Assembly: GCA_905199855.1 (NCBI GenBank)
Contig: CAJKHY010000002.1
Span: 8,571-72,570, forward strand
Direction of reading: 5' to 3'
DNA length: 64,000 nt
Source of the DNA: an uncultured Clostridium sp.
GTDB lineage: Bacteria > Bacillota_I > Bacilli_A > RF39 > UBA660
Positions 1,907-62,805 of the stretch are shown piece by piece. The stretch's first letter is position 1. Every line of letters starts with the position of its first letter. The notes under the pieces were generated by a model. That model saw nothing but the letters and a program-made list of their open reading frames with translations. It was not told the origin of the DNA and did not search any database. A program made the translations under genes and the position numbers.

Positions 1907-1938
1907 ATTATTTATAATCCTTTCATATTTTTATTATT

Positions 1939-2406
1939 TTACCATCTGTAATGAGCAAATGCTTTGTTTGCTTCTGCCATTTTGTGGGTATCTTCACGTT
2001 TTTTAACTGCTGCACCAGTACCATTTGAGGCATCAATGATTTCAGCCGCTAATTTTTCAGCCATGCTCTTACCATGTCTTAATCTTGCATATTGAGCAAG
2101 CCATCTAAAACTTAATGCTTGAGCACGATCAGCTTTTACTTCAACTGGTACTTGGTAGTTAGCTCCACCAACTCTTCTTGTTTTAACTTCTAAAGCTGGC
2201 TTAATATTCTTCATTGCTTTTTCAAATACCACGATTGGTTCTTCATTAGTCTTTTCTTTTATAATATCAAATGCTTCATAAATGATTTTTTGAGCAGTTC
2301 CTTTTTTACCATCTATCATAATTTGGTTTATTAACTTAGTAACAACTTTTGAATTATATATTGAATCGGGTAACACATCTCTTTTTACTGCACGTTTCTT
2401 ACGCAT
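1939..2406 (-). CDS. rpsG: 30S ribosomal protein S7
   Basis: 155 aa starting [27 protein letters not shown]..., which is the S7 family. It sits between rpsL and fusA. Confidence 0.92.
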
Positions 2407-2442
2407 TTTAGTTCCTCCTTTCAGGGTATAATATTAATTATT

Positions 2443-2856
2443 TTATTTTTTAGGTTTTTTTGCTCCATATTTAGAACGACCTTGCATACGGTTTTGTACT
2501 CCAGCAGTATCCATTGTACCACGAATAATGTGATAACGAACACCGATTAAGTCCTTAACACGGCCACCTCTAATTAAGACTACACTGTGTTCTTGTAAGT
2601 TATGACCAATTCCTGGAATGTAGCAAGTTACTTCCATACCATTAGATAATCTAACACGAGCATATTTTCTTAATGCTGAGTTTGGTTTCTTTGGTGTCAT
2701 GGTTCCAACACGAACACACACTCCTCTTTTTTGAGGTGCATTTAAAGAAGTATTTTTTCTTTTTAAAGTATTTAAGCCAATTCCTAAAACTGGTGATTTG
2801 CTTTTTCTATTTTTCTTACTTCTTCTATTCTTAATTAATTGGTTAATTGTAGGCAT
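2443..2856 (-). CDS. rpsL: 30S ribosomal protein S12
   Basis: The tracked ORF is N-terminally over-extended. The true start is the internal Met of [15 protein letters not shown]..., an ATG at 2856 preceded by an AGGAGG ribosome-binding site on the minus strand. The resulting protein is about 137 aa, typical of S12. Confidence 0.9.
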
Positions 2857-3302
2857 ATTAAACCTCCTTTCATACACACACCCCGGTGTTTCATTTTTCT
2901 TTTTAAAGATAAGTTTTGTTTTTCTTGCAAAATACAAGCAAAAACAAAACCTATACAGGTAAAGAACATAGTTAATATATCAAAGATAAAGGCTTTTGTC
3001 AATTACTTTTTAATTATTTTTTAATTTTTTCATCTTGATTTCTTGCTTGATATTTATTTAAATACTCACCCCTAAAATAATTATATAAATCTAAAATATT
3101 TTCAATTTCATAACTACATATATAATCATATGCTTACCTCTTATTAAATTATACTATTTTTTTAAATAATTTTCTATAATTATTCATATTATTTTCCTCT
3201 CTTATCAAAGTTTTTCAAAGTCTAAATCATTTTTATTATTTTTATTTTTTCATGTTTCTGGTGAAAAATATATTTTTATTTACTCAAATTAGGTAAAAAT
3301 CT

Positions 3303-14177: not shown

Positions 14178-14699
14178 TTATATTATAACATTAGTAACAT
14201 CACTAAAATTTCTACATTTTTCTTCTAACAATGGAAAATTACAACATCTATCCTTTACATTTTTAGGTAATTTATTATTTTTATATAAACTGTATAATAA
14301 TTTTGATTTTTTGTTTATTTCTTTTCTATTAAGTGTTAACCAACGTAATTGATTTCTTAATAACTCAATTCTAAGCATTTCTTTTTTATCAGTAGTCCTC
14401 TTATTTAAGTCAAACTCAATATAATTTTTTGAAGTTACTGGAATCATATTATTAAAATTAACTACTCCATATACTCCATTATCTATCTTTACTAAATCCA
14501 AAGTATTTTTTAAAGACATATGTTTTGGCTTAGGGCTAGAAAGTGGAGCAAAATATTCACACTTGCCAACCATAAATAAAACTCCAATAAAAGGTCTCAA
14601 TTGTTTTTGCCCTGCATTATATGGTACTTTATTATCAAACAATCTTAAATAATCACAATAATTTGAATTTACTTTTACAATTTTAAATTTCTTATACAT
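14178..14699 (-). CDS. toxN: ToxN/AbiQ-family endoribonuclease (type III toxin-antitoxin toxin)
   Basis: 173 aa. MYKKFKIVKVNSNYCDYLRLFDNKVPYN...RPFIGVLFMVGKCEYFAPLSSPKPKH...CCNFPLLEEKCRNF aligns by eye with ToxN blocks: MKFYTI..YIEYLK.FDDKV, AFIGIV...YLAPLTSPK..H, C.F.VLEEKYRDF. The ribosome-binding site GGATGGTGA precedes the ATG at 14699. Confidence 0.8.
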   Translation of the reverse strand: MYKKFKIVKVNSNYCDYLRLFDNKVPYNAGQKQLRPFIGVLFMVGKCEYFAPLSSPKPKHMSLKNTLDLVKIDNGVYGVVNFNNMIPVTSKNYIEFDLNKRTTDKKEMLRIELLRNQLRWLTLNRKEINKKSKLLYSLYKNNKLPKNVKDRCCNFPLLEEKCRNFSDVTNVII

Positions 14700-14793
14700 A
14701 TAACATCACCATCCACATCTATTAATTAATTATACCTTAATATAAATATTATCATTTGTTAACTTTGCTTATTGATTATCTTCATTATAATAT

Positions 14794-14822
14794 AAAGAAT
14801 TAAAAATGTCAATAAAGTTTCA
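14794..14822 (-). promoter_or_regulatory. Sigma-A-like promoter (TTGACA-17-TATAAT) directly upstream of toxN
   Basis: On the minus strand: TTGACA (14822-14817), a 17-nt spacer, TATAAT (14799-14794). This is a perfect consensus. It is placed between the upstream terminator and toxN. Confidence 0.55.
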
Positions 14823-14844
14823 TACATTTGTTTGAATATTTTTT

Positions 14845-14875
14845 CAAAAAAAGATTAGAGTCTGCTCTCTAATCT
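14845..14875 (-). terminator. Intrinsic terminator between the repeat array and toxN
   Basis: AGATTAGAG-tctgct-CTCTAATCT is a perfect 9-bp stem. On the minus strand it is followed by a U7 run (A-run at 14846-14852 on the plus strand). It is also T-flanked on the plus strand. Confidence 0.7.
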
Positions 14876-14877
14876 AC

Positions 14878-14957
14878 TTTTTTAGCTGCCATTTATAGAG
14901 CTGGCTTCACTCGCTTTTTTAGCTGCCATTTATAGAGCTGGCTTCACTCGCTTTTTT
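14878..14957 (-). repeat. Tandem direct repeat, 37 nt x 2.2 copies; candidate ToxI-like RNA antitoxin
   Basis: Two identical units TTTTTTAGCTGCCATTTATAGAGCTGGCTTCACTCGC at 14878-14914 and 14915-14951, plus a third T6 start. Read on the toxN strand, each unit is GCGAGUGAAGCCAGCUCUAUAAAUGGCAGCU followed by A6. It lies immediately 5' of the terminator and toxN. Confidence 0.6.
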
Positions 14958-52958: not shown

Positions 52959-54752
52959 TTATTTTACAGAAAGAACAACACGAAAGCCTTGGTTAGGACT
53001 TGTATCAGTACCGTTATCCCAACCATAGAAAAAACTAAATATTCCTTTTTCTTCATCAGACATATATCTTCCTCCACGAGTAAACCAAGGATGATAGGAA
53101 TCAACAAATAAAGCTAAATCACTATACCAGCCTGCTGTCTCACCTAAAGCATCTCCTAGGTGGCTAGCACTTACACTAGTTCCTGAGTATATATCTATAT
53201 GCTCTGTTGGTACTGTACTTACTGTTAATCCTGATTTTCCTGCTGTTTTTTTATAATTTCCCATTACATTTTCAAATGCTCCACCACTCATATCATATAC
53301 TCCAAAAACAGTTCCTGTTGTTGATTGCAATGTATTAGTTATATAACTTGTACCAGAACCATCACCAGTAAGATAAGAACCATCCCCATTCGATGTTATT
53401 TCTGTTATTCCAAGTCCATAATTACTTTGCTTTAAATATGCTACTGCTCCCCATTCTATATTTTTTATCATATGAGAATCTGATTCATTTGCCCCTTTTG
53501 TAGTCAAATAATTTGTTGACCTAAATAATTTACCTGCACTATACATACTTGCTATTGTTATATCTCTTAATGATGTAATTCCAGGTTTTATTGTAGGAGT
53601 AGTTGTACTTCCTGTCGTTTCAAACTTTCCTACCCATATTCCTTTTAATTCTGTTTTATTACCACTTGCATTTATCATTGTAAATGCTGGATGTGTATAC
53701 CAATTCCCATTTGCTTTGTTTTGACATGTTTCTGCTCCATTAGATGCATATGTACATGTTACTGTTCCTGTAGTACTTGTACCACTTTCAAAAGTTACTT
53801 CAATTAATTGTTCTGTTGTACCACTTGCATATGTAGCATTAAATAATTTATATTTATATCTTGGTATCCATACATAATATGCTAAGATATCTGCTTCAGG
53901 TACTACAGTTCCAACATCTGCATTCATATATGTTTCTCTTTTAGTACTTGTTACCATAACTGCATTAGCCCATTTTTGATTACCATAATCATACCAATTA
54001 TTATATGCTCCATACTCATCAGCTTTTACCCATTTACTTCCATCATATGTAATTGGTATCATACCATCAGCTAATACTGGTCTATTTGCTCCAGAAGGAT
54101 CTTCTACTAAATCTTCAGTTTTACTAAGGCAATAATAATTCTTTTTACCATTTTCTATTTCTATTTTACAATTACTAGTATCTCCTATTTGTCCTTCACA
54201 ACTACTCTTTATATCACTAAGATTATAAGTATTAGTTATCTTAGTACCATTAGGATAATTATCTGTTCCATAGTTAATTGTATTACCTACATAACCTGTT
54301 ACTACTCCAATTACTACATCTATATCGTTATTAGAATTATTTGCTATTACTAAAGGTATAGTTTTTCTATTATCTTTATCTATATTACCACTTGTATTTA
54401 ATGCTGTTGTAGTAGTATTCTTGTCTTCTACTACTTCACCTATTATTACATCAGTTAAATCATTTGATGTATCATAATATATTTCATAATAGATAGTACC
54501 ATTACTAGAATTATTTACAATAAAGTTAAAACTAGCAACACTATTTTTACCTATATGAAAACTTTGTGTTCCTGATACATCAAAGGTATAATTTAACGTA
54601 GTATCCATATTAACAACATTACCTGAACTTACATTTGCGGTAAACATTGCATATGTATAATATAATCCTACTGATAATAATATAGCAATAATAGCACTTA
54701 ATACATATATATATTTAAGTGGTATTCTTTCTTTTAATTTTTTCATAATCAT
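52959..54752 (-). CDS. Membrane-anchored extracytoplasmic protein with C-terminal FGE-sulfatase (SUMF1/EgtB/PvdO-like) domain
   Basis: N-terminal signal anchor. The C-terminal blocks ...NIEWGAVAYL..., GVYDMSGGAFENVMG, FTRGGRYMS...GFRVVL match the conserved FGE-domain blocks (EWE, GlyDMsGNVwEW, RGGsw...GFR). The ribosome-binding site AATGGAGAA lies upstream. Confidence 0.55.
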   Translation of the reverse strand: MIMKKLKERIPLKYIYVLSAIIAILLSVGLYYTYAMFTANVSSGNVVNMDTTLNYTFDVSGTQSFHIGKNSVASFNFIVNNSSNGTIYYEIYYDTSNDLTDVIIGEVVEDKNTTTTALNTSGNIDKDNRKTIPLVIANNSNNDIDVVIGVVTGYVGNTINYGTDNYPNGTKITNTYNLSDIKSSCEGQIGDTSNCKIEIENGKKNYYCLSKTEDLVEDPSGANRPVLADGMIPITYDGSKWVKADEYGAYNNWYDYGNQKWANAVMVTSTKRETYMNADVGTVVPEADILAYYVWIPRYKYKLFNATYASGTTEQLIEVTFESGTSTTGTVTCTYASNGAETCQNKANGNWYTHPAFTMINASGNKTELKGIWVGKFETTGSTTTPTIKPGITSLRDITIASMYSAGKLFRSTNYLTTKGANESDSHMIKNIEWGAVAYLKQSNYGLGITEITSNGDGSYLTGDGSGTSYITNTLQSTTGTVFGVYDMSGGAFENVMGNYKKTAGKSGLTVSTVPTEHIDIYSGTSVSASHLGDALGETAGWYSDLALFVDSYHPWFTRGGRYMSDEEKGIFSFFYGWDNGTDTSPNQGFRVVLSVK

Positions 54753-55019
54753 TCTCCATTCTTAGAACAGCATAGCAAAAAAACTAAACAAAAGAACTAG
54801 TATTAAAATACTAATCTTTTATTTAGTTTACCTACTTTATATATTTTTTTAGTATTTAAAATAATAGAATATTTAAATACCCCCCCTCCATACAGATGTT
54901 TGGATATTGTAGTTAATTGGATATATTCTATTCATTTTAAACACCTACTTTCTTTTGCTATTCTTATGTATTAATCTTATCATGCTTTTATTATTTATGC
55001 AAGTAAAATGTTTATTTTT

Positions 55020-56273
55020 TTATTCTTCTATTTCACAATTATTAATTTCTTCCTCTAAAGCCTTAATATTCTTAATATCCTGACTATGAATTATATCATG
55101 ACATTCCTTACATAATATCTCTATATTATCTTCTCTCTTACCACCATCAGCATATCTTTTTATATGATGATATTCAGGTTCATTATAAAACTCAAACTTC
55201 TTCTTACATCTTTCACAATAAGGATGCTTCTCAAACAATATAGATTTATCAGCCTCAGTAATTTGTCTAGCCACATCTAAATCTAAAACCTTATATTTTT
55301 TTAAAAATTCATCTACCAATAACTTTTGTCTTAAAGTAATTAAATTTTCACTCCATCCACCACGACTAATATCATAATATTTATTATAAATATAATTAGA
55401 ACGCCTAAAATCTTCATTATAAACATTATTAAAGAAATTAATACAAAACTTCCTAATATTATCTTCCTGTTGAGTCATTGCATAATATTTTCTAAGATAA
55501 CTCACCATAGTATATATTGACATAATCCTAGCATCTTTTTCTAAGCAAAAGTATTTACCACCACTAGGGAAACATTTTAATAAATAATTTAAATTCTCAT
55601 TAACAGTGTTATATATTTTACCATTAATTGACTCATTCTTATAATCATCAAAATATTTATATAAATACTCAGTAGAAGATTCTTTAGTTCCAAACTGCTC
55701 AAAATACATCATTTTAGCCACGATTGGATAAGTATTATATCTATTTTTATTAATGGAAATAACTTCGTCAACAAACTTATGCTTAGATAGTTTTCTCATT
55801 GTAAGAACAATATCTCCTGGTAAAGCATTTAATCTTTCACCTAAATTTAAAGGTTTACCTCTTTGTAACCTAGAAAAAATCATTCTAACCCTTTCATCAT
55901 CATAATCTGGTACAATATGAACTTTAAGATCATACCCTAAAAATTTATCTTGTAATTCCTCAGGAATACATTTATCTCCATTAAAAGTACAACCATCTAA
56001 TTTCTCACCTGAAAATTTACTACTTAACTTAATCTTATTATCATAAAATTTTCTAATACAATTTAATCTTTGTTGCCCGTCTACTATATAAAATACAGTA
56101 TCGCCATTTTCATCAGTCTTCGCATTAAAGAAAAACATTGGAATAGGTTCTTCTCTTAAAATAGTATCTATAAAACATTGATTATCTTGATTAGACCAAA
56201 CATCAACAGGTCTTTGATAATTATAATCAACCTTATATCTATTCTTTTTATTAATAAATTCTTGTATTGTCAT
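55020..56273 (-). CDS. DUF262 (ParB-like nuclease, DGQQR motif) - HNH nuclease fusion protein; GmrSD-like putative defense/type IV restriction enzyme
   Basis: N-terminal FYIVDGQQRLNCI is the DUF262 hallmark. C-terminal EYHHIKRYADGGKREDNIEILCKECHDIIH is an HNH. 417 aa. Confidence 0.7.
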   Translation of the reverse strand: MTIQEFINKKNRYKVDYNYQRPVDVWSNQDNQCFIDTILREEPIPMFFFNAKTDENGDTVFYIVDGQQRLNCIRKFYDNKIKLSSKFSGEKLDGCTFNGDKCIPEELQDKFLGYDLKVHIVPDYDDERVRMIFSRLQRGKPLNLGERLNALPGDIVLTMRKLSKHKFVDEVISINKNRYNTYPIVAKMMYFEQFGTKESSTEYLYKYFDDYKNESINGKIYNTVNENLNYLLKCFPSGGKYFCLEKDARIMSIYTMVSYLRKYYAMTQQEDNIRKFCINFFNNVYNEDFRRSNYIYNKYYDISRGGWSENLITLRQKLLVDEFLKKYKVLDLDVARQITEADKSILFEKHPYCERCKKKFEFYNEPEYHHIKRYADGGKREDNIEILCKECHDIIHSQDIKNIKALEEEINNCEIEE

Positions 56274-56290
56274 ATAAAACTCCTTATAAA

Positions 56291-58201
56291 TTATTTTATT
56301 TTGTAACTATCTTCTAGTGAGAACTCAACGTTTTCTTCTATCCAAAGTTTTCTTGGTTCTACTGCATCACCCATTAAGACACTTACTCTTTTTTCCGCTA
56401 GAGCAGCATCGGTAATACCCACTTTAACAAGCATTCTGTTATTTGGATCCATTGTTGTTTCCCATAGTTGGGTAAAATTCATTTCACCTAATCCTTTATA
56501 TCTTTGAATAGTATAATTTTTCATGTTAGAAACTACTTTTCTTAGATCTTCGCCAGGATATACATAGGTAACTTTTTTCTTGTTTTCTTCTACTTTATAT
56601 AAAGGAGGCATTGCTATATATAAGTGTCCATTTTCAATAAGTGGTTTCATATACCTATAGAAAAATGTAAGTAGTAAGCATTGGATATGGGCTCCATCTT
56701 CATCAGCATCAGTCATGATAATAACCTTATCATAGTTACTATCTTTTATATTAAATTCATTGCCAATTCCAGCTCCTATGGTATGAATTAGGGTATTAAT
56801 TTCTTCATTTTTAAATATATCTTCTAGTTTGGCTTTCTCAGTATTAATAACTTTTCCCCTTAATGGTAATACTGCTTGGTATTTGCGATCTCTTCCTTGT
56901 TTAGCAGAACCACCAGCACTATCACCTTCGACTATAAATAGTTCGTTTTTACTTTTGTCTTTTCCTTGTGCAGGTGTTAGTTTACCACTTAATATTTTTT
57001 CTATTTTTTTGTTGTCTTTTCCTTTTCTTGTTTCTTCTCTTGCTTTTCTGGCTGCTTCTCTCGCTTCTTTACCTTTTAATGCTTTAGATATTATTTTGGT
57101 AGCAATGCTTTTATTTTCTTCTAAAAAATATTTTAATTTTTCTACGGTAATCGATTCTACTATACTTCTTGCTATTGGAGTACCTAGTTTGGCTTTGGTT
57201 TGCCCTTCAAACTGTAATAAGTCTTCTGGTATTTGAACACTTATAATCGCGGTTAAACCTTCTCTTACATCACTACCTTCAAATGTTTTATCTTTGCTTT
57301 TTAAGAAATTGTTTTCTTTGGCATAGTCATTTATTATTTTAGTAATCGCCGATTTGAATCCTACTTCATGGGTACCACCATCAGTGGTTTTAACATTATT
57401 GACAAAACTTATAATGTTTTCAGCATAACTATCTGTATATTGTAAAGCTACATCAACTTTAATTTTATCTCTAACACTAGAAAAACATAATACCTTATGT
57501 AAAACATCTTTTCCTTCGTTTAGATAATCACAGAATGCTGATAATCCATTTTCATAAACATATTTTTCTTCTCTATTATTAATTTCATCTATTATTTCAA
57601 TGATAAGACCATTTATTAGAAAAGCACATTCTTGCATTCTTTCACATATTGTTGAAAAACTAAAACTGGTCGTTTGGAATATTGTTGGATCTGGCCAAAA
57701 TCTTACTGTTGTTCCTGTGCCTCTGGCTTCACCTATTTTTCTTAATGTTTTGCTTACTTTGCCTCCATTTTCAAAAGCAATATAATATTCTCCTCCATCT
57801 TTTTTAGTTGTTACTTCCATTTTACTGCTTAACGCATTAACAACCGATGCTCCAACCCCATGCAAGCCCCCACTTACTTTGTATCCTCCATCACTAAATT
57901 TACCACCAGCATGGAGTACTGTATATATTACTTCGGGTGTACTTTTTCCTGAAGCATGCATTCCTACAGGGATACCTCTACCTTTATCAGTAACACTGAC
58001 AGAGCCATCTTTATGCATAATTATCTTAATACTGTTACCATATCCGTTTAATGCTTCATCTACGGCATTGTCAACAATTTCCCAGACTAGATGATGTAAT
58101 CCTCTTTTATCAGTGGAACCAATATACATACCAGGTCTTTTTCTAACAGCTTCAAGGCCTTCTAATATTTTAATTGAATTCTCATCATAATTTGATTTCA
58201 T
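56291..58201 (-). CDS. Type IIA DNA topoisomerase subunit B (GyrB or ParE; not distinguishable here)
   Basis: YDENSIKILEGLEAVRKRPGMYIGST... is a GHKL ATPase. The TOPRIM region EGDSAGGSAK is present. No A-subunit gene is adjacent. Confidence 0.88.
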   Translation of the reverse strand: MKSNYDENSIKILEGLEAVRKRPGMYIGSTDKRGLHHLVWEIVDNAVDEALNGYGNSIKIIMHKDGSVSVTDKGRGIPVGMHASGKSTPEVIYTVLHAGGKFSDGGYKVSGGLHGVGASVVNALSSKMEVTTKKDGGEYYIAFENGGKVSKTLRKIGEARGTGTTVRFWPDPTIFQTTSFSFSTICERMQECAFLINGLIIEIIDEINNREEKYVYENGLSAFCDYLNEGKDVLHKVLCFSSVRDKIKVDVALQYTDSYAENIISFVNNVKTTDGGTHEVGFKSAITKIINDYAKENNFLKSKDKTFEGSDVREGLTAIISVQIPEDLLQFEGQTKAKLGTPIARSIVESITVEKLKYFLEENKSIATKIISKALKGKEAREAARKAREETRKGKDNKKIEKILSGKLTPAQGKDKSKNELFIVEGDSAGGSAKQGRDRKYQAVLPLRGKVINTEKAKLEDIFKNEEINTLIHTIGAGIGNEFNIKDSNYDKVIIMTDADEDGAHIQCLLLTFFYRYMKPLIENGHLYIAMPPLYKVEENKKKVTYVYPGEDLRKVVSNMKNYTIQRYKGLGEMNFTQLWETTMDPNNRMLVKVGITDAALAEKRVSVLMGDAVEPRKLWIEENVEFSLEDSYKIK

Positions 58202-58210
58202 GTTTTCACC

Positions 58211-59194
58211 CTATTCTAATACTATATTTACATTTATTTTTTTTGTTTCACAGTTATACTCTAATTCAATTTCTTTGTCTAAATTTATATATTCATTGGT
58301 TTGGGGATTTTTTAATGAGCCTTTGAGGTAACCTTTATTTATTAAATCATTTAAAGTAATTGTTGTTTTATCATGGCATGTTTTAAATAAAGTGGTAATG
58401 TTATCAGTAGCATAATTTTTACTTGATAGTATAATGCTATTTTTTATTTTGTTAAGGTTTTCTTCTTTGCTTTTATCAATTAAACTACTTACGTTGGGCA
58501 CAAGCAAAATGGCAAGCATGCCTAATATTGAGATAACAATTAGTAATTCAATCAGTGTGAAGCCTTGGTTGTTTTTGTTATGTTTGGTAATATAATCTTT
58601 AACTGGTCCGTAGCTTCTTCGGTGTTCATTGATGATGCCATATTCTTCGATGGCTTTGATGTGTTTTTTTGTAGGATAACCTTTGTTGTTTTTAAAGTCA
58701 TACATTGGATATTTTTTGTCTAATTCATATAGCATTCTATCTCTAGTTACTTTGGCAATGACTGAAGCCGCAGCGATACTAATACTTAAAGCATCGCCTT
58801 TGATGATTGATGTTACTGGTATATCTAATTCTAAGGGCATGGCATCCACTAAAACATGTTCTAGTTTTATTTGTTTTCTTACGTTTTTAATTGCTTCTTT
58901 CATTGCTAGTTTGGTAGCTTCATAGATATTTATTTTATCAATTATGTCTTTGTCTATTATTCCAATTCCTATTGCAACAGCATGGTTCATAATGTAATCA
59001 TAATATATTTCTCTTTTTTTCTCACTTAATTTTTTTGAATCAGTTAATCCTTCTAAAACAAAATCTTTGGGTAATACAACGCAAGAGGCTACGACTGGGC
59101 CTACTAGAGGGCCTCTTCCTACTTCGTCAACACCTCCAATGAGAGAGATGTTACGACTATATAGTTCTTTTTCATATTTATATAAATCAACCAT
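58211..59194 (-). CDS. rnhB: Ribonuclease HII with an in-frame C-terminal ComGC-like type IV (pseudo)pilin domain
   Basis: Residues 1-~213 are the RNase HII family (GGVDEVGRGPLVGPV...). Residues ~214-327 begin QGFTLIELLIVISILGMLAILLVPNV, the prepilin peptidase G|FTLIE motif with a hydrophobic helix. There is no stop codon and no ATG/GTG/TTG start between the two parts. Confidence 0.7.
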   Translation of the reverse strand: MVDLYKYEKELYSRNISLIGGVDEVGRGPLVGPVVASCVVLPKDFVLEGLTDSKKLSEKKREIYYDYIMNHAVAIGIGIIDKDIIDKINIYEATKLAMKEAIKNVRKQIKLEHVLVDAMPLELDIPVTSIIKGDALSISIAAASVIAKVTRDRMLYELDKKYPMYDFKNNKGYPTKKHIKAIEEYGIINEHRRSYGPVKDYITKHNKNNQGFTLIELLIVISILGMLAILLVPNVSSLIDKSKEENLNKIKNSIILSSKNYATDNITTLFKTCHDKTTITLNDLINKGYLKGSLKNPQTNEYINLDKEIELEYNCETKKINVNIVLE

Positions 59195-60891: not shown

Positions 60892-62805
60892 CTATCTAAC
60901 TGATACTTTTTTTCTATAAATCGTAATTGATGCAATTGCAAGTACACTGATAAGTGTTAATAATATATAACCAAATGTCGCATCAAATGTTTTTGGATTT
61001 TCCACGATTGGGTTATTTATTACTTCTACATTATTATAAGTTATTCCATAAGTAGAGAATTTATCAGTAAAAATATGTAATTCTTTATTAGCTTCATCTA
61101 TATAGAATGTTTGATCCTTTAATTCAGTAGGCATCTTATCTAATTTAGTAAATTTATTTACTTCTTGACCATGATAACGATATAATTCTATTTTTTCTTT
61201 ATTTAAAGCATCAAATGAAATAATGAAATGTAATACATTATCAGTATTAGATAGTGTTTGTCCATTATTTTTTATTCCTATATTTAAGAATAACATCTCT
61301 TTATTTTTTGTTTCAGCAAGTATCTTATTTTGAGCTTCATTATTCTCCAATTTCTCTTCTTTTTGAATAATTACTTCTATTTGTCCATCTGTTTGATCTA
61401 ATCCATCTACTAATACATTTGGAGTATCCTTTCCAACTAGAACAGTAACACTTCCAGTTTTAATTTCAGCATCAACTTTTAAATTCTTATCTAATACTTC
61501 TACTAATTTAGTAGTTGAATTATTACCATTTATAAATACAATATTGTATTTTCCTTTTTCTACTTTAGTAAATTCATATTTACCTTCGTCATCAGCAGTA
61601 ACAACCTTTAAAACGTTACCACCTTGAATTAATTGAACCTTAGCATTTTTACCATTAGTAATTGTTCCACCAATAATAAATTTTCCTTCTACAACATTTA
61701 TTGGACTTACAACATATTCTTCTTCACTAAAAGTAACTTTATGTGCTGGTTTTAAATAAGTAACTGGATTAGCACTGAAAGTTCCACCTGATACTTCTAC
61801 TACTCCTATATAATCTAGTACTTCAGATAATAAGAAGTTATTATTTCCTCTTGCAGAAACAAATTTACCACCTAGAATTTCAATTTTATTAACATTGGTT
61901 TTTTTAATATTTTTAGCTAAATATTCATAAATACTAACAGCATTTTTACTTGTAAATGTCCCATCTTTAATGATTAATTCAACATTACCATAGTAATCTT
62001 TATTAGATTCTAATTGTATTGCTGCTCCAGAAGCATTAATACCATTTGAATATCCTTCTGTTGGCATTTGTGATTCACCAGTACAAGTAAATGTACCTCC
62101 ATTAATAATTACTTTACCTGATTTAATACCAATAGCTGATTCTTTACCTGTAATATTTGCTTTGCCAATATTCCAAGTACCATTTCCTGCTGCGTATAAA
62201 CCAGTTTGTTCAGAATTAATAACTGCTCCATCTAAAATATTAATTACTGGAGCTCCTTCGGCATTTTGTAAATTACCATTAATAGTAATACCACCTCCAG
62301 TAGATTTTTCTATCTTACCAGCAAATTCAACATTAACTCCATAACCTGATTCAAGGTTTTTTTCATTTCCTGGGGCATAAATTACTGCAATACCATATAA
62401 ACCATTAACTGTAACATCTTTACCAACTTTTAATGTTGAATAGTTTGCCTTAGTCTTATCAGTAGTACCCCATACATTTAAGGCATTATGCTTAGGATGA
62501 CTAATAGTACCTTTCCCAATAATATTTAATGATCCATCTTGAACGGTAAATGATCTTACTTTTGTTCCATCAAAATCAATATTATGATTATTCATATTTA
62601 ATGTAACATTAGTAGAAACTAAAACTCTATCAGGAAGTGTGTAAGTAATATTATCTATTAATTTTACAACATCACCTGATTTAGCAGTTTTAAATGCCGC
62701 TAATAATGTTGCTGCATCATTAACTTCTACCTCTTTTGCACTTACCACAGACAATGAAAATATCATAGCTATCATTGCAACAATAACAAGCATTTTTCTT
62801 TTCAT
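60892..62805 (-). CDS. Secreted beta-helix-like surface protein with carboxypeptidase-regulatory-like domain and C-terminal NPKTFD + TM + basic tail
   Basis: Signal peptide. Repetitive Gly/Asn/Thr-rich segments, parallel beta-helix-like. GKFIIGGTITNG...DDEGKYEFTKVEKGKYNIVF is a CarboxypepD_reg/Cna-B-like fold. C-terminal NPKTFDATFGYILLTLISVLAIASITIYRKKVSVR. Confidence 0.6.
   Translation of the reverse strand: MKRKMLVIVAMIAMIFSLSVVSAKEVEVNDAATLLAAFKTAKSGDVVKLIDNITYTLPDRVLVSTNVTLNMNNHNIDFDGTKVRSFTVQDGSLNIIGKGTISHPKHNALNVWGTTDKTKANYSTLKVGKDVTVNGLYGIAVIYAPGNEKNLESGYGVNVEFAGKIEKSTGGGITINGNLQNAEGAPVINILDGAVINSEQTGLYAAGNGTWNIGKANITGKESAIGIKSGKVIINGGTFTCTGESQMPTEGYSNGINASGAAIQLESNKDYYGNVELIIKDGTFTSKNAVSIYEYLAKNIKKTNVNKIEILGGKFVSARGNNNFLLSEVLDYIGVVEVSGGTFSANPVTYLKPAHKVTFSEEEYVVSPINVVEGKFIIGGTITNGKNAKVQLIQGGNVLKVVTADDEGKYEFTKVEKGKYNIVFINGNNSTTKLVEVLDKNLKVDAEIKTGSVTVLVGKDTPNVLVDGLDQTDGQIEVIIQKEEKLENNEAQNKILAETKNKEMLFLNIGIKNNGQTLSNTDNVLHFIISFDALNKEKIELYRYHGQEVNKFTKLDKMPTELKDQTFYIDEANKELHIFTDKFSTYGITYNNVEVINNPIVENPKTFDATFGYILLTLISVLAIASITIYRKKVSVR

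Follow-up and report, generated by a model that had tools for sequence, protein, structure and literature searches.

A strain-variable DUF262-HNH gene inserted after parE in an uncultured gut bacterium encodes a candidate stand-alone defense nuclease

Introduction

In the tested DUF262 nucleases GmrSD, BrxU, SspE, DndI, HEC-06 and EF_B0059, the DGQQR pocket of the DUF262 domain binds and hydrolyzes nucleoside triphosphates (NTPs), and this domain, together with a helical middle domain, senses DNA and activates a C-terminal His-Me-finger nuclease. All of them carry DUF1524, with its (D/E)HxxP motif, and mutation of either motif abolishes defense. Here we analyze the gene for a 417-amino-acid (aa) protein in which a DUF262 domain is fused to a classical HNH domain; it lies directly downstream of parE in a stretch of 64,000 nucleotides (nt) from an uncultured Clostridium sp. 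(contig CAJKHY010000002.1), hereafter called the window, whose numbering is used throughout. The explanation that we favor, at a probability of about 0.65, is that this DUF262-HNH gene was horizontally acquired and encodes a stand-alone GmrSD/BrxU-like defense nuclease comparable to the type IV restriction enzymes.

Several described systems share part of this architecture. The GmrSD family (Eco94GmrSD, BrxU, HEC-05/06 and EF_B0059) combines in one chain an N-terminal DUF262 with (I/V)DGQQR, a helical middle domain and a C-terminal His-Me-finger, and its members are likewise stand-alone, mobile, defense-island genes; the difference lies in the nuclease, a zinc-finger PF01844 HNH of about 60 aa here and DUF1524 in the family. 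BrxU is moreover larger (about 560-600 aa) and has no detectable sequence-level similarity. McrA, a type IV, 5-methylcytosine-dependent HNH enzyme (PDB 6GHC; mREase_IV in PADLOC), has the same CxxC / HH / N / CxxCH layout, whereas its N-terminal modified-cytosine-binding domain is replaced here by DUF262 and the helical domain. SspE and DndI, which are phosphorothioate-sensing nickases, also unite a DUF262 DGQQR NTPase and an HNH-type nickase in one chain, but they are larger, contain a DUF1524-type domain and are linked to ssp or dnd modification genes. NsnA of the Menshen system, in which a ParB-DUF262 domain is followed by a helical DNA-binding domain (PMC12065111), provides the best defense-library match for the DUF262 half; unlike the present protein it has no nuclease, and its partners are the NsnB ATPase and the NsnC effector, genes for which do not adjoin the one described here. 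The protein is a GmrS-type head carrying a McrA-type HNH tail, and because it lacks DUF1524 we do not file it as a GmrSD member.

Results and Discussion

Domain architecture and conserved residues

A reading of the letters alone, made before any database search (the sequence-only reading), had delimited the 417-aa open reading frame (ORF) and assigned it a DGQQR-type DUF262 and an HNH domain. Its coordinates were exact, and both domains score above the curated Pfam cut-offs by which they were judged: PF03235 GmrSD_N (DUF262) with 39.3 bits against a cut-off of 33.2 (aa 3-226) and PF01844 HNH with 36.9 bits against 21.4 (aa 353-397). The choice of HNH over DUF1524 was also borne out, with no Pfam match to DUF1524 (PF07510) at E<=0.1 and no (D/E)HxxP motif in the 417-aa sequence. 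An AAGGAG ribosome-binding site (56280-56285) is spaced 6 nt from the ATG, and the ORF cannot be a chance one because the protein has 595 homologs at E<=1e-3 (best E=4.9e-281).

Conservation was assessed in an alignment of 50 homologs of 48-80% identity, in which every predicted catalytic residue is kept in 50 of 50. The nucleotide-pocket motif V64-D-G-Q-Q-R69 is invariant throughout, and so is the HNH pattern C353xxC356...H369-H370...N383...C388xxC391-H392...H396. The other two DUF262 motifs are listed as QRxxxW (motif I) and FxxxN (motif III) in PMC12065111. Motif I is here Q20-R21-x4-W26, one residue longer than QRxxxW, and motif III is F133-S-R-L-Q137, in which Q replaces the N of FxxxN; both variants are invariant within the DUF262-HNH family.

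Predicted structure and similarity searches

Two AlphaFold2 models were computed, one of the whole chain (mean pLDDT 85.6) and one of aa 1-340 (pLDDT 87.7). They show an N-terminal domain of alpha/beta type and a middle domain made up entirely of helices (about aa 154-326), with a small beta-beta-alpha domain at the C-terminus, and helices 154-326 have a pLDDT above 90 in both. When the PDB was searched with Foldseek, BrxU (7p9k/7p9m) came first both for the whole chain and for aa 1-340, with a probability of 0.94-1.00 and an E-value of about 3e-4 to 6e-4; the ParB, KorB and Noc CTPases and sulfiredoxin followed among the matches. SspE was matched weakly (probability about 0.2), and the C-terminal tail matched the Gme HNH nickase. 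From the description in PMC12065111 and the BrxU match over more than 430 columns, we infer that the helical middle domain occupies the position of the GmrSD-M or 'ParBDB' DNA-binding domain.

Sequence searches reached solved relatives through the HNH domain only, namely E. coli McrA, a group II intron maturase and IscB. McrA (6ghc) is the nearest of these, at E=1.3e-3 with the single sequence and 5.9e-5 with a profile; with the profile the match does not extend beyond the HNH region, and with the single sequence it is confident in that region alone. In PADLOC the top match is Menshen NsnA (3.2e-26, aa 5-222), followed by PD-T4-2_A (3.7e-7) and the McrA-type mREase_IV (0.0035 over aa 343-407).

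Presence and absence of the gene behind parE

The sequence-only reading had further proposed that the gene is an insertion and that orthologous loci of relatives should tell whether it is a core gene. A scan of the parE locus in one genome per GTDB species returned 80 loci and placed the host species among uncultured low-GC gut Bacilli. The gene follows parE in one of the 80, a contig of the same species ('Clostridium sp. CAG:762', L008; ParE 98% identical), and in none of the 79 other species sampled.

Within the species the site is polymorphic. Six conspecific contigs (L089, L090 and L092-L095) have an empty site, at which parE is followed by a terminator-like hairpin and then, about 457 nt after parE, by the rpsJ/S10 operon. 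The window and five other contigs are occupied: L008; L088 and L091, which read parE, DUF262-HNH gene, a split gene (300 + 422 aa) resembling that of the 597-aa protein downstream in the window (p597), and S10 operon; and L101 and L102, found in a metagenome scan. The six empty and six occupied contigs have a common backbone that is 96-100% identical, and an identical ParE protein is encoded both with the gene (L088, L091) and without it (all six empty contigs). The gene is a strain-variable inserted accessory gene and not part of the core, as the sequence-only reading had held.

The occupied-only segment of about 1,438 nt contains the ORF alone, with 17 nt upstream and 168 nt downstream of it, and the empty allele carries 15 nt (AAAAGTATGTTACTA) in its place. 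Homology between the empty alleles and the window stops 1 nt past the parE stop codon TAA and restarts at window position 54851; the empty-site sequence is ...AAAATAAAATAATAAAAGTATGTTACTATAAAAAAA..., and the empty site runs from the parE 3' end through AAAAGTATGTTACTA to TAAAAAAATATATATGG.... A 115-nt block of the empty allele is only 81% identical to the occupied version, and this block and the 15-nt filler show that the empty allele did not arise by simple deletion. The insert contains neither an integrase nor a transposase; its ends have no convincing terminal inverted or direct repeat or target-site duplication, and a composition scan of the window revealed no anomaly of GC content or skew at the insert.

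Two alleles of parE, 90.7% identical in DNA, were found among these contigs, with about 160 synonymous and about 13 non-synonymous codon differences; allele A is present in the window, L088, L091 and all empty-site contigs, and allele B in L008, L101 and L102. The differences extend to 12 nt before the stop codon, and the insert junction is the same in both. The contigs fall into three haplotypes (A with the gene, A without it and B with the gene), which requires a minimum of one recombination breakpoint almost exactly at the junction between parE and the insert. Homologous exchange of the ordinary kind can explain it, and a homing-type process would leave the same trace. The DUF262-HNH gene itself is 98.4-99.4% identical between A and B backgrounds. 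We considered a recent lateral spread of the gene from the contrast with parE (90.7%) and dropped it, as a sliding window shows that parE is the outlier; the genes flanking parE are otherwise 96-100% identical between strains. As a separate observation, the divergent tract coincides almost exactly with the boundaries of parE, which suggests, on sequence comparison, a recombinational replacement of the whole gene.

The type IIA topoisomerase B subunit recognized upstream by the sequence-only reading is ParE by the model TIGR01058 parE_Gpos (1004.5 bits against a cut-off of 899.95). The absence of the A-subunit gene at this position, which that reading had taken as a mark of insertion, did not survive the comparison. 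In L065 the gene directly after parE, of 849 aa, is parC (TIGR01061, 979 bits), and parC homologs were found in the fetched parE flanks of 11 of the 80 species, all of a distant group whose parE is 71-75% identical. In the 54 closest species none occurs within the fetched flank, some contigs of which end early, and parC is also missing after parE in the empty-site conspecific strains. The parE/parC split is uninformative about the insertion because it is a trait of the clade and the strains with an empty site also have no parC there. In about 21-25 of the closer species parE is followed by a pair of spoIIGA-like and sigE-like (sigma-factor) genes.

Distribution and genomic contexts of the family

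The same pair of domains, at about 50% identity, is present in proteins of 412-420 aa from Bacteroidota, Omnitrophota, Chlorobi-type bacteria and Woesearchaeota/Nanoarchaeia. The fused architecture is found among the Bacilli, Bacteroidota, Omnitrophota and DPANN archaea. When 1.84 billion cluster representatives were scanned exhaustively with HMMER, 3,200 matched at E<=1e-3 and 698 at E<=1e-10. The fused architecture is widespread, since many of the matches listed are about 400-430 aa long and aligned nearly over their full length (from about residue 10 to about 392, 25-33% identity). The family is essentially absent from viruses: one true member was found among the 2.9 million viral contigs of IMG/VR, no PHROG family spans the full length of the protein, and GenBank phages, like the plasmids of PLSDB, yielded no close member and only distant DUF262 matches of about 25% identity.

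Close relatives (59-80% identity) never adjoin parE, and a comparison of loci shows no conservation beyond the ORF and a generic ribosome-binding site. The 80%-identical relative is preceded by a KAP NTPase gene (PADLOC PDC-S20) and a 136-aa gene. One 75%-identical relative (L004) is preceded by genes for a D12 adenine methylase and a 472-aa HNH protein, the three genes being co-directional with gaps of at most 18 nt; an additional upstream homology of this locus to the end of parE was rejected as AT-rich chance similarity. A second 75%-identical relative is preceded by DUF6339. The 62%-identical relative (L215) is solitary, between a Mur ligase gene and the enolase gene, and the 59%-identical one (L212) is carried by an element that has genes for a relaxase, an integrase and replication, beside CBASS and near an N6/N4 methylase. 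In the 112 ORFs that flank family members at about 45 loci, the families that recur most are N6_Mtase (6), Eco57I (5), MmeI (3), HsdM_N (3), HsdR, HsdS, ResIII, integrase and a transposase. These defense and mobile contexts of the relatives agree with the sequence-only reading of an inserted gene.

Two side observations were made at these loci. The CBASS operon of L212 (8262-10991) has three genes, E2-CBASS, a SMODS/DncV-like cyclase and a SAVED effector, and stands directly beside the relative on an integrative mobilizable element of a gut metagenome-assembled genome. In two independent samples (L006:7700-9153 and L007), the DUF262-HNH gene of the present species is cut at about codon 75, after DGQQRLNCIRK (window position 56049), and its remnant is joined to a prophage end with a 93-aa hydrophobic ORF, a CHAP/CW_7 lysin and a reverse-transcriptase gene near tail genes. 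We considered that the phage targets the defense gene and rejected this, as six IMG/VR contigs (L206-L211) carry the same end (...AGTAAATATCTTC|ATTTTATG), joined after the ATTTTATG core to a different sequence in each. Because the six flanks differ, phage integration is promiscuous at short ATTTTATG-like sites and the inactivation of the gene is incidental.

Proposed function and alternative explanations

We propose that the ParB-like DUF262 domain, with its DGQQR nucleotide pocket, and the helical middle domain would bind DNA and serve as an NTP-driven sensor or switch, and that the C-terminal McrA-like zinc-finger HNH would then cut or nick DNA recognized as foreign. The target would most plausibly be DNA with a base modification that the host lacks, and this modification-dependent (type IV) detail is less certain than the defense role itself. 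Expression would occur by read-through from parE, which is probable because the gene lies between the parE stop codon and the terminator-like hairpin of parE; the two genes are probably on one transcript. By analogy with the described enzymes we infer the NTPase and nuclease activities, the nature of the target and the anti-phage role.

Several points weigh against this proposal. The spacing of motif I (QRx4W) and the residue in motif III (FSRLQ, not FxxxN) depart from the published DUF262 consensus. The Foldseek TM-scores to BrxU are low (0.20-0.32) and the E-values modest (about 3e-4), and sequence links to BrxU, SspE or DndI in the PDB were not found, even by profile. PADLOC has no full-length model for DUF262-HNH, its best match, NsnA, spanning the DUF262 half only. 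No biochemical or phage-challenge data on a DUF262-PF01844 HNH fusion were found in the searched literature, and nothing at this locus indicates which DNA feature is recognized.

The alternative that survives best, though we consider it rather unlikely, is an effector of the SspE/DndI kind, in which DUF262 would read a host-made mark (phosphorothioate or methyl) written elsewhere in the genome and HNH would nick DNA lacking or carrying that mark. SspE and DndI are indeed DUF262 nucleases coupled to modification systems, the L004 gene follows its D12 methylase and HNH protein in one direction with hardly any gap, and methylases are the most frequent neighbors of family members. The genes in the window, in L215 and in L001, however, have no adjacent modification gene, and among the matches listed for the 46 window ORFs of at least 150 aa there is no DNA methyltransferase and no sspABCD or dndBCDE gene; the latter are also lacking beside the relatives. 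Different loci have different partners, in keeping with a self-sufficient single-gene system, and the fold match to SspE is weak.

Less probable still is that the ORF is a homing-type selfish gene, a mobile unit whose HNH cuts empty intergenic sites past conserved genes so that repair copies the ORF in. Such a process would account for the conservation of nothing but the ORF and its ribosome-binding site, for the lack of integrase, transposase, terminal inverted repeat and target-site duplication, for solitary inserts directly after housekeeping genes in two genomes (parE here; Mur ligase in L215, with enolase downstream), and for the same junction in two parE alleles that are 9% apart up to 12 nt from it. 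On the other hand, homing endonucleases are typical of phages, introns and inteins, whereas this family hardly occurs in viral collections; invariant NTPase-type DUF262 motifs are unexpected in a homing enzyme; many members lie inside restriction-modification or defense islands or larger mobile elements; no co-conversion tract is visible in parE; and homologous recombination through the flanking core DNA accounts equally well for the three haplotypes.

It is very improbable that the protein is an orphan or degenerate part of a Menshen-like (NsnABC) or other multi-gene DUF262 system, non-functional alone. The PADLOC matches to NsnA and PD-T4-2_A point that way, but the neighbors are parE and a surface-protein gene instead of an NsnB ABC-ATPase or NsnC effector gene, the protein has a nuclease of its own, unlike NsnA, and members from different phyla retain both the fused architecture of about 415 aa and the catalytic residues. 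A ParB-like housekeeping protein working with topoisomerase IV or in chromosome segregation, and co-transcribed with parE in place of parC, would fit the 17-nt distance from parE with no terminator between and the ParB/Srx fold of the N-terminal domain, but it is effectively refuted by the presence/absence polymorphism, the gene being absent in conspecifics with identical ParE and at the locus in all 79 other species, never beside parE in close relatives, younger than the parE/parC split and disrupted by a prophage in some strains.

Flanking sequence and other features of the window

The features of the locus are listed in Table 1.

Table 1. Features at the DUF262-HNH locus, in window coordinates.
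Feature	Position	Strand	Basis or remark
DUF262-HNH ORF, candidate defense nuclease	55020..56273	-	417 aa, ATG start; ORF list, Pfam, homologs, AlphaFold2
Occupied-only segment, about 1,438 nt	54852..56289	-	blastn of L089, L090, L092, L093, L095; junction alignments; L088 vs L089
ParB-like DUF262 (GmrSD_N) domain, aa 3-226	55596..56267	-	Pfam, PADLOC NsnA, alignment, BrxU fold match
DUF262 motif I, Y19-Q-R...W26	56196-56219	-	Invariant in 50-sequence alignment
DUF262 motif II, DGQQR, aa 65-69	56067-56081	-	Invariant in 50-sequence alignment
DUF262 motif III region, F133-SRLQRGK140		-	Invariant in 50-sequence alignment
All-helical middle domain, about aa 154-340	55254..55814	-	AlphaFold2 helices 154-326
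Zinc-finger HNH domain, aa 353-397, CxxC...HH...N...CxxCH...H	55083..55217	-	PF01844, McrA 6ghc similarity, invariant residues
17-nt spacer, parE stop codon to ATG	56274..56290	-	Carries AAGGAG; left end of insert
parE, topoisomerase IV subunit B, core gene directly upstream	56291..58201	-	TIGR01058, Pfam domains
245-nt repeat element	54735..54979	-	L096/L097 and L088 matches; copies compared
AT-rich terminator-like hairpin and U-run	54765..54829	-	Arms 54815-54829 and 54781-54795; inverted repeat; RNA fold
597-aa surface-type gene, N-terminal membrane anchor	52959..54752	-	ORF; downstream neighbor in window only

The flank of about 270 nt that the sequence-only reading had called AT-rich is a gap of 267 nt down to the next ORF, which starts at 54752; its size stands, but its composition does not distinguish it, since its GC content (about 24%) is no different from that of the rest of the window (about 25%). 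RNA folding of 54760-55025 gave -62.5 kcal/mol (z=-6.85), and no Rfam family matched this structured 3' flank or the repeat in it. The hairpin block is common to occupied and empty alleles and is probably the terminator of parE itself; this role stays putative because the GC-demanding terminator scan found nothing, neither a canonical GC-rich terminator nor a distinct promoter around the insert rising above the shuffled background.

The same reading had placed the gene between core genes, which is right for parE and wrong for the downstream neighbor. The 597-aa gene belongs to a variable, paralogous surface-protein family; its product has only a sub-threshold Pfam match to FGE-sulfatase, and no record of the exact protein was found in a protein look-up. 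In other strains the p597-RsmE block, with a 595-aa version of p597, stands elsewhere, after an amidoligase gene (L096) or a dCMP deaminase gene (L097), and in L088 and L102 it is a 70%-identical paralog that comes after the DUF262-HNH gene.

Elsewhere in the genome, p597-type surface-protein genes have further copies of the 245-nt repeat upstream of them, and the element may be a leader or attenuator of such genes. It contains a conserved 20-aa ORF (MNRIYPINYNIQTSVWRGGI), a tract of 5-9 G that differs between copies by substitution, an 18-nt inverted repeat (54855-54872 / 54923-54940) and the terminator-like hairpin. Two genomic contexts overlap in it, since the match of L096 and L097 to the window extends up to 54979 and that of L088 down to 54735, and contigs L008 and L006 end inside the repeat or at its edge. 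The join of the window to the p597 block inside this repeat may be a real recombination or an assembly chimera; the independent contigs L088, L091 and L102 agree on the order parE, DUF262-HNH gene, p597-like paralog and S10 operon.

Three other loci drew attention. The minus-strand region 14178-14957 holds an AbiQ-like ORF of 173 aa (PADLOC AbiQ, 5.9e-35) with a perfect 37-nt tandem repeat of 2.2 copies (14877-14957) just upstream, a putative pair in the classic layout of a type III toxin-antitoxin abortive-infection system (AbiQ/antiQ, ToxIN-like). A 327-aa ORF at 58211-59194, also on the minus strand, joins RNase HII (aa 21-195) to a prepilin-type methylation motif (PF07963, aa 207-231) and a pilin-like tail of about 95 aa; the fusion is also called in conspecific contigs, while other species match the RNase HII part of about 200 aa only. 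In L090 an ISL3-family transposase gene (1937-3199) takes the place of the 637-aa surface-protein gene at 60892-62805 of the window.

Significance

Hundreds of proteins of this kind are already in public databases under the loose names 'DUF262 domain-containing protein', 'GmrSD restriction endonuclease domain-containing protein' or 'McrA', and the surprise is modest for that reason. If active, they would represent a compact single-gene restriction class of about 415 aa and could supply a small modification-dependent nuclease as a laboratory tool, and if the homing explanation were true the element could be a defense gene and a selfish gene at once. The locus is a clean natural single-gene presence/absence polymorphism beside an essential gene of an uncultured gut bacterium, and its main value lies in a compact candidate architecture missed by PADLOC 2.0 together with a natural knock-in/knock-out pair of alleles.

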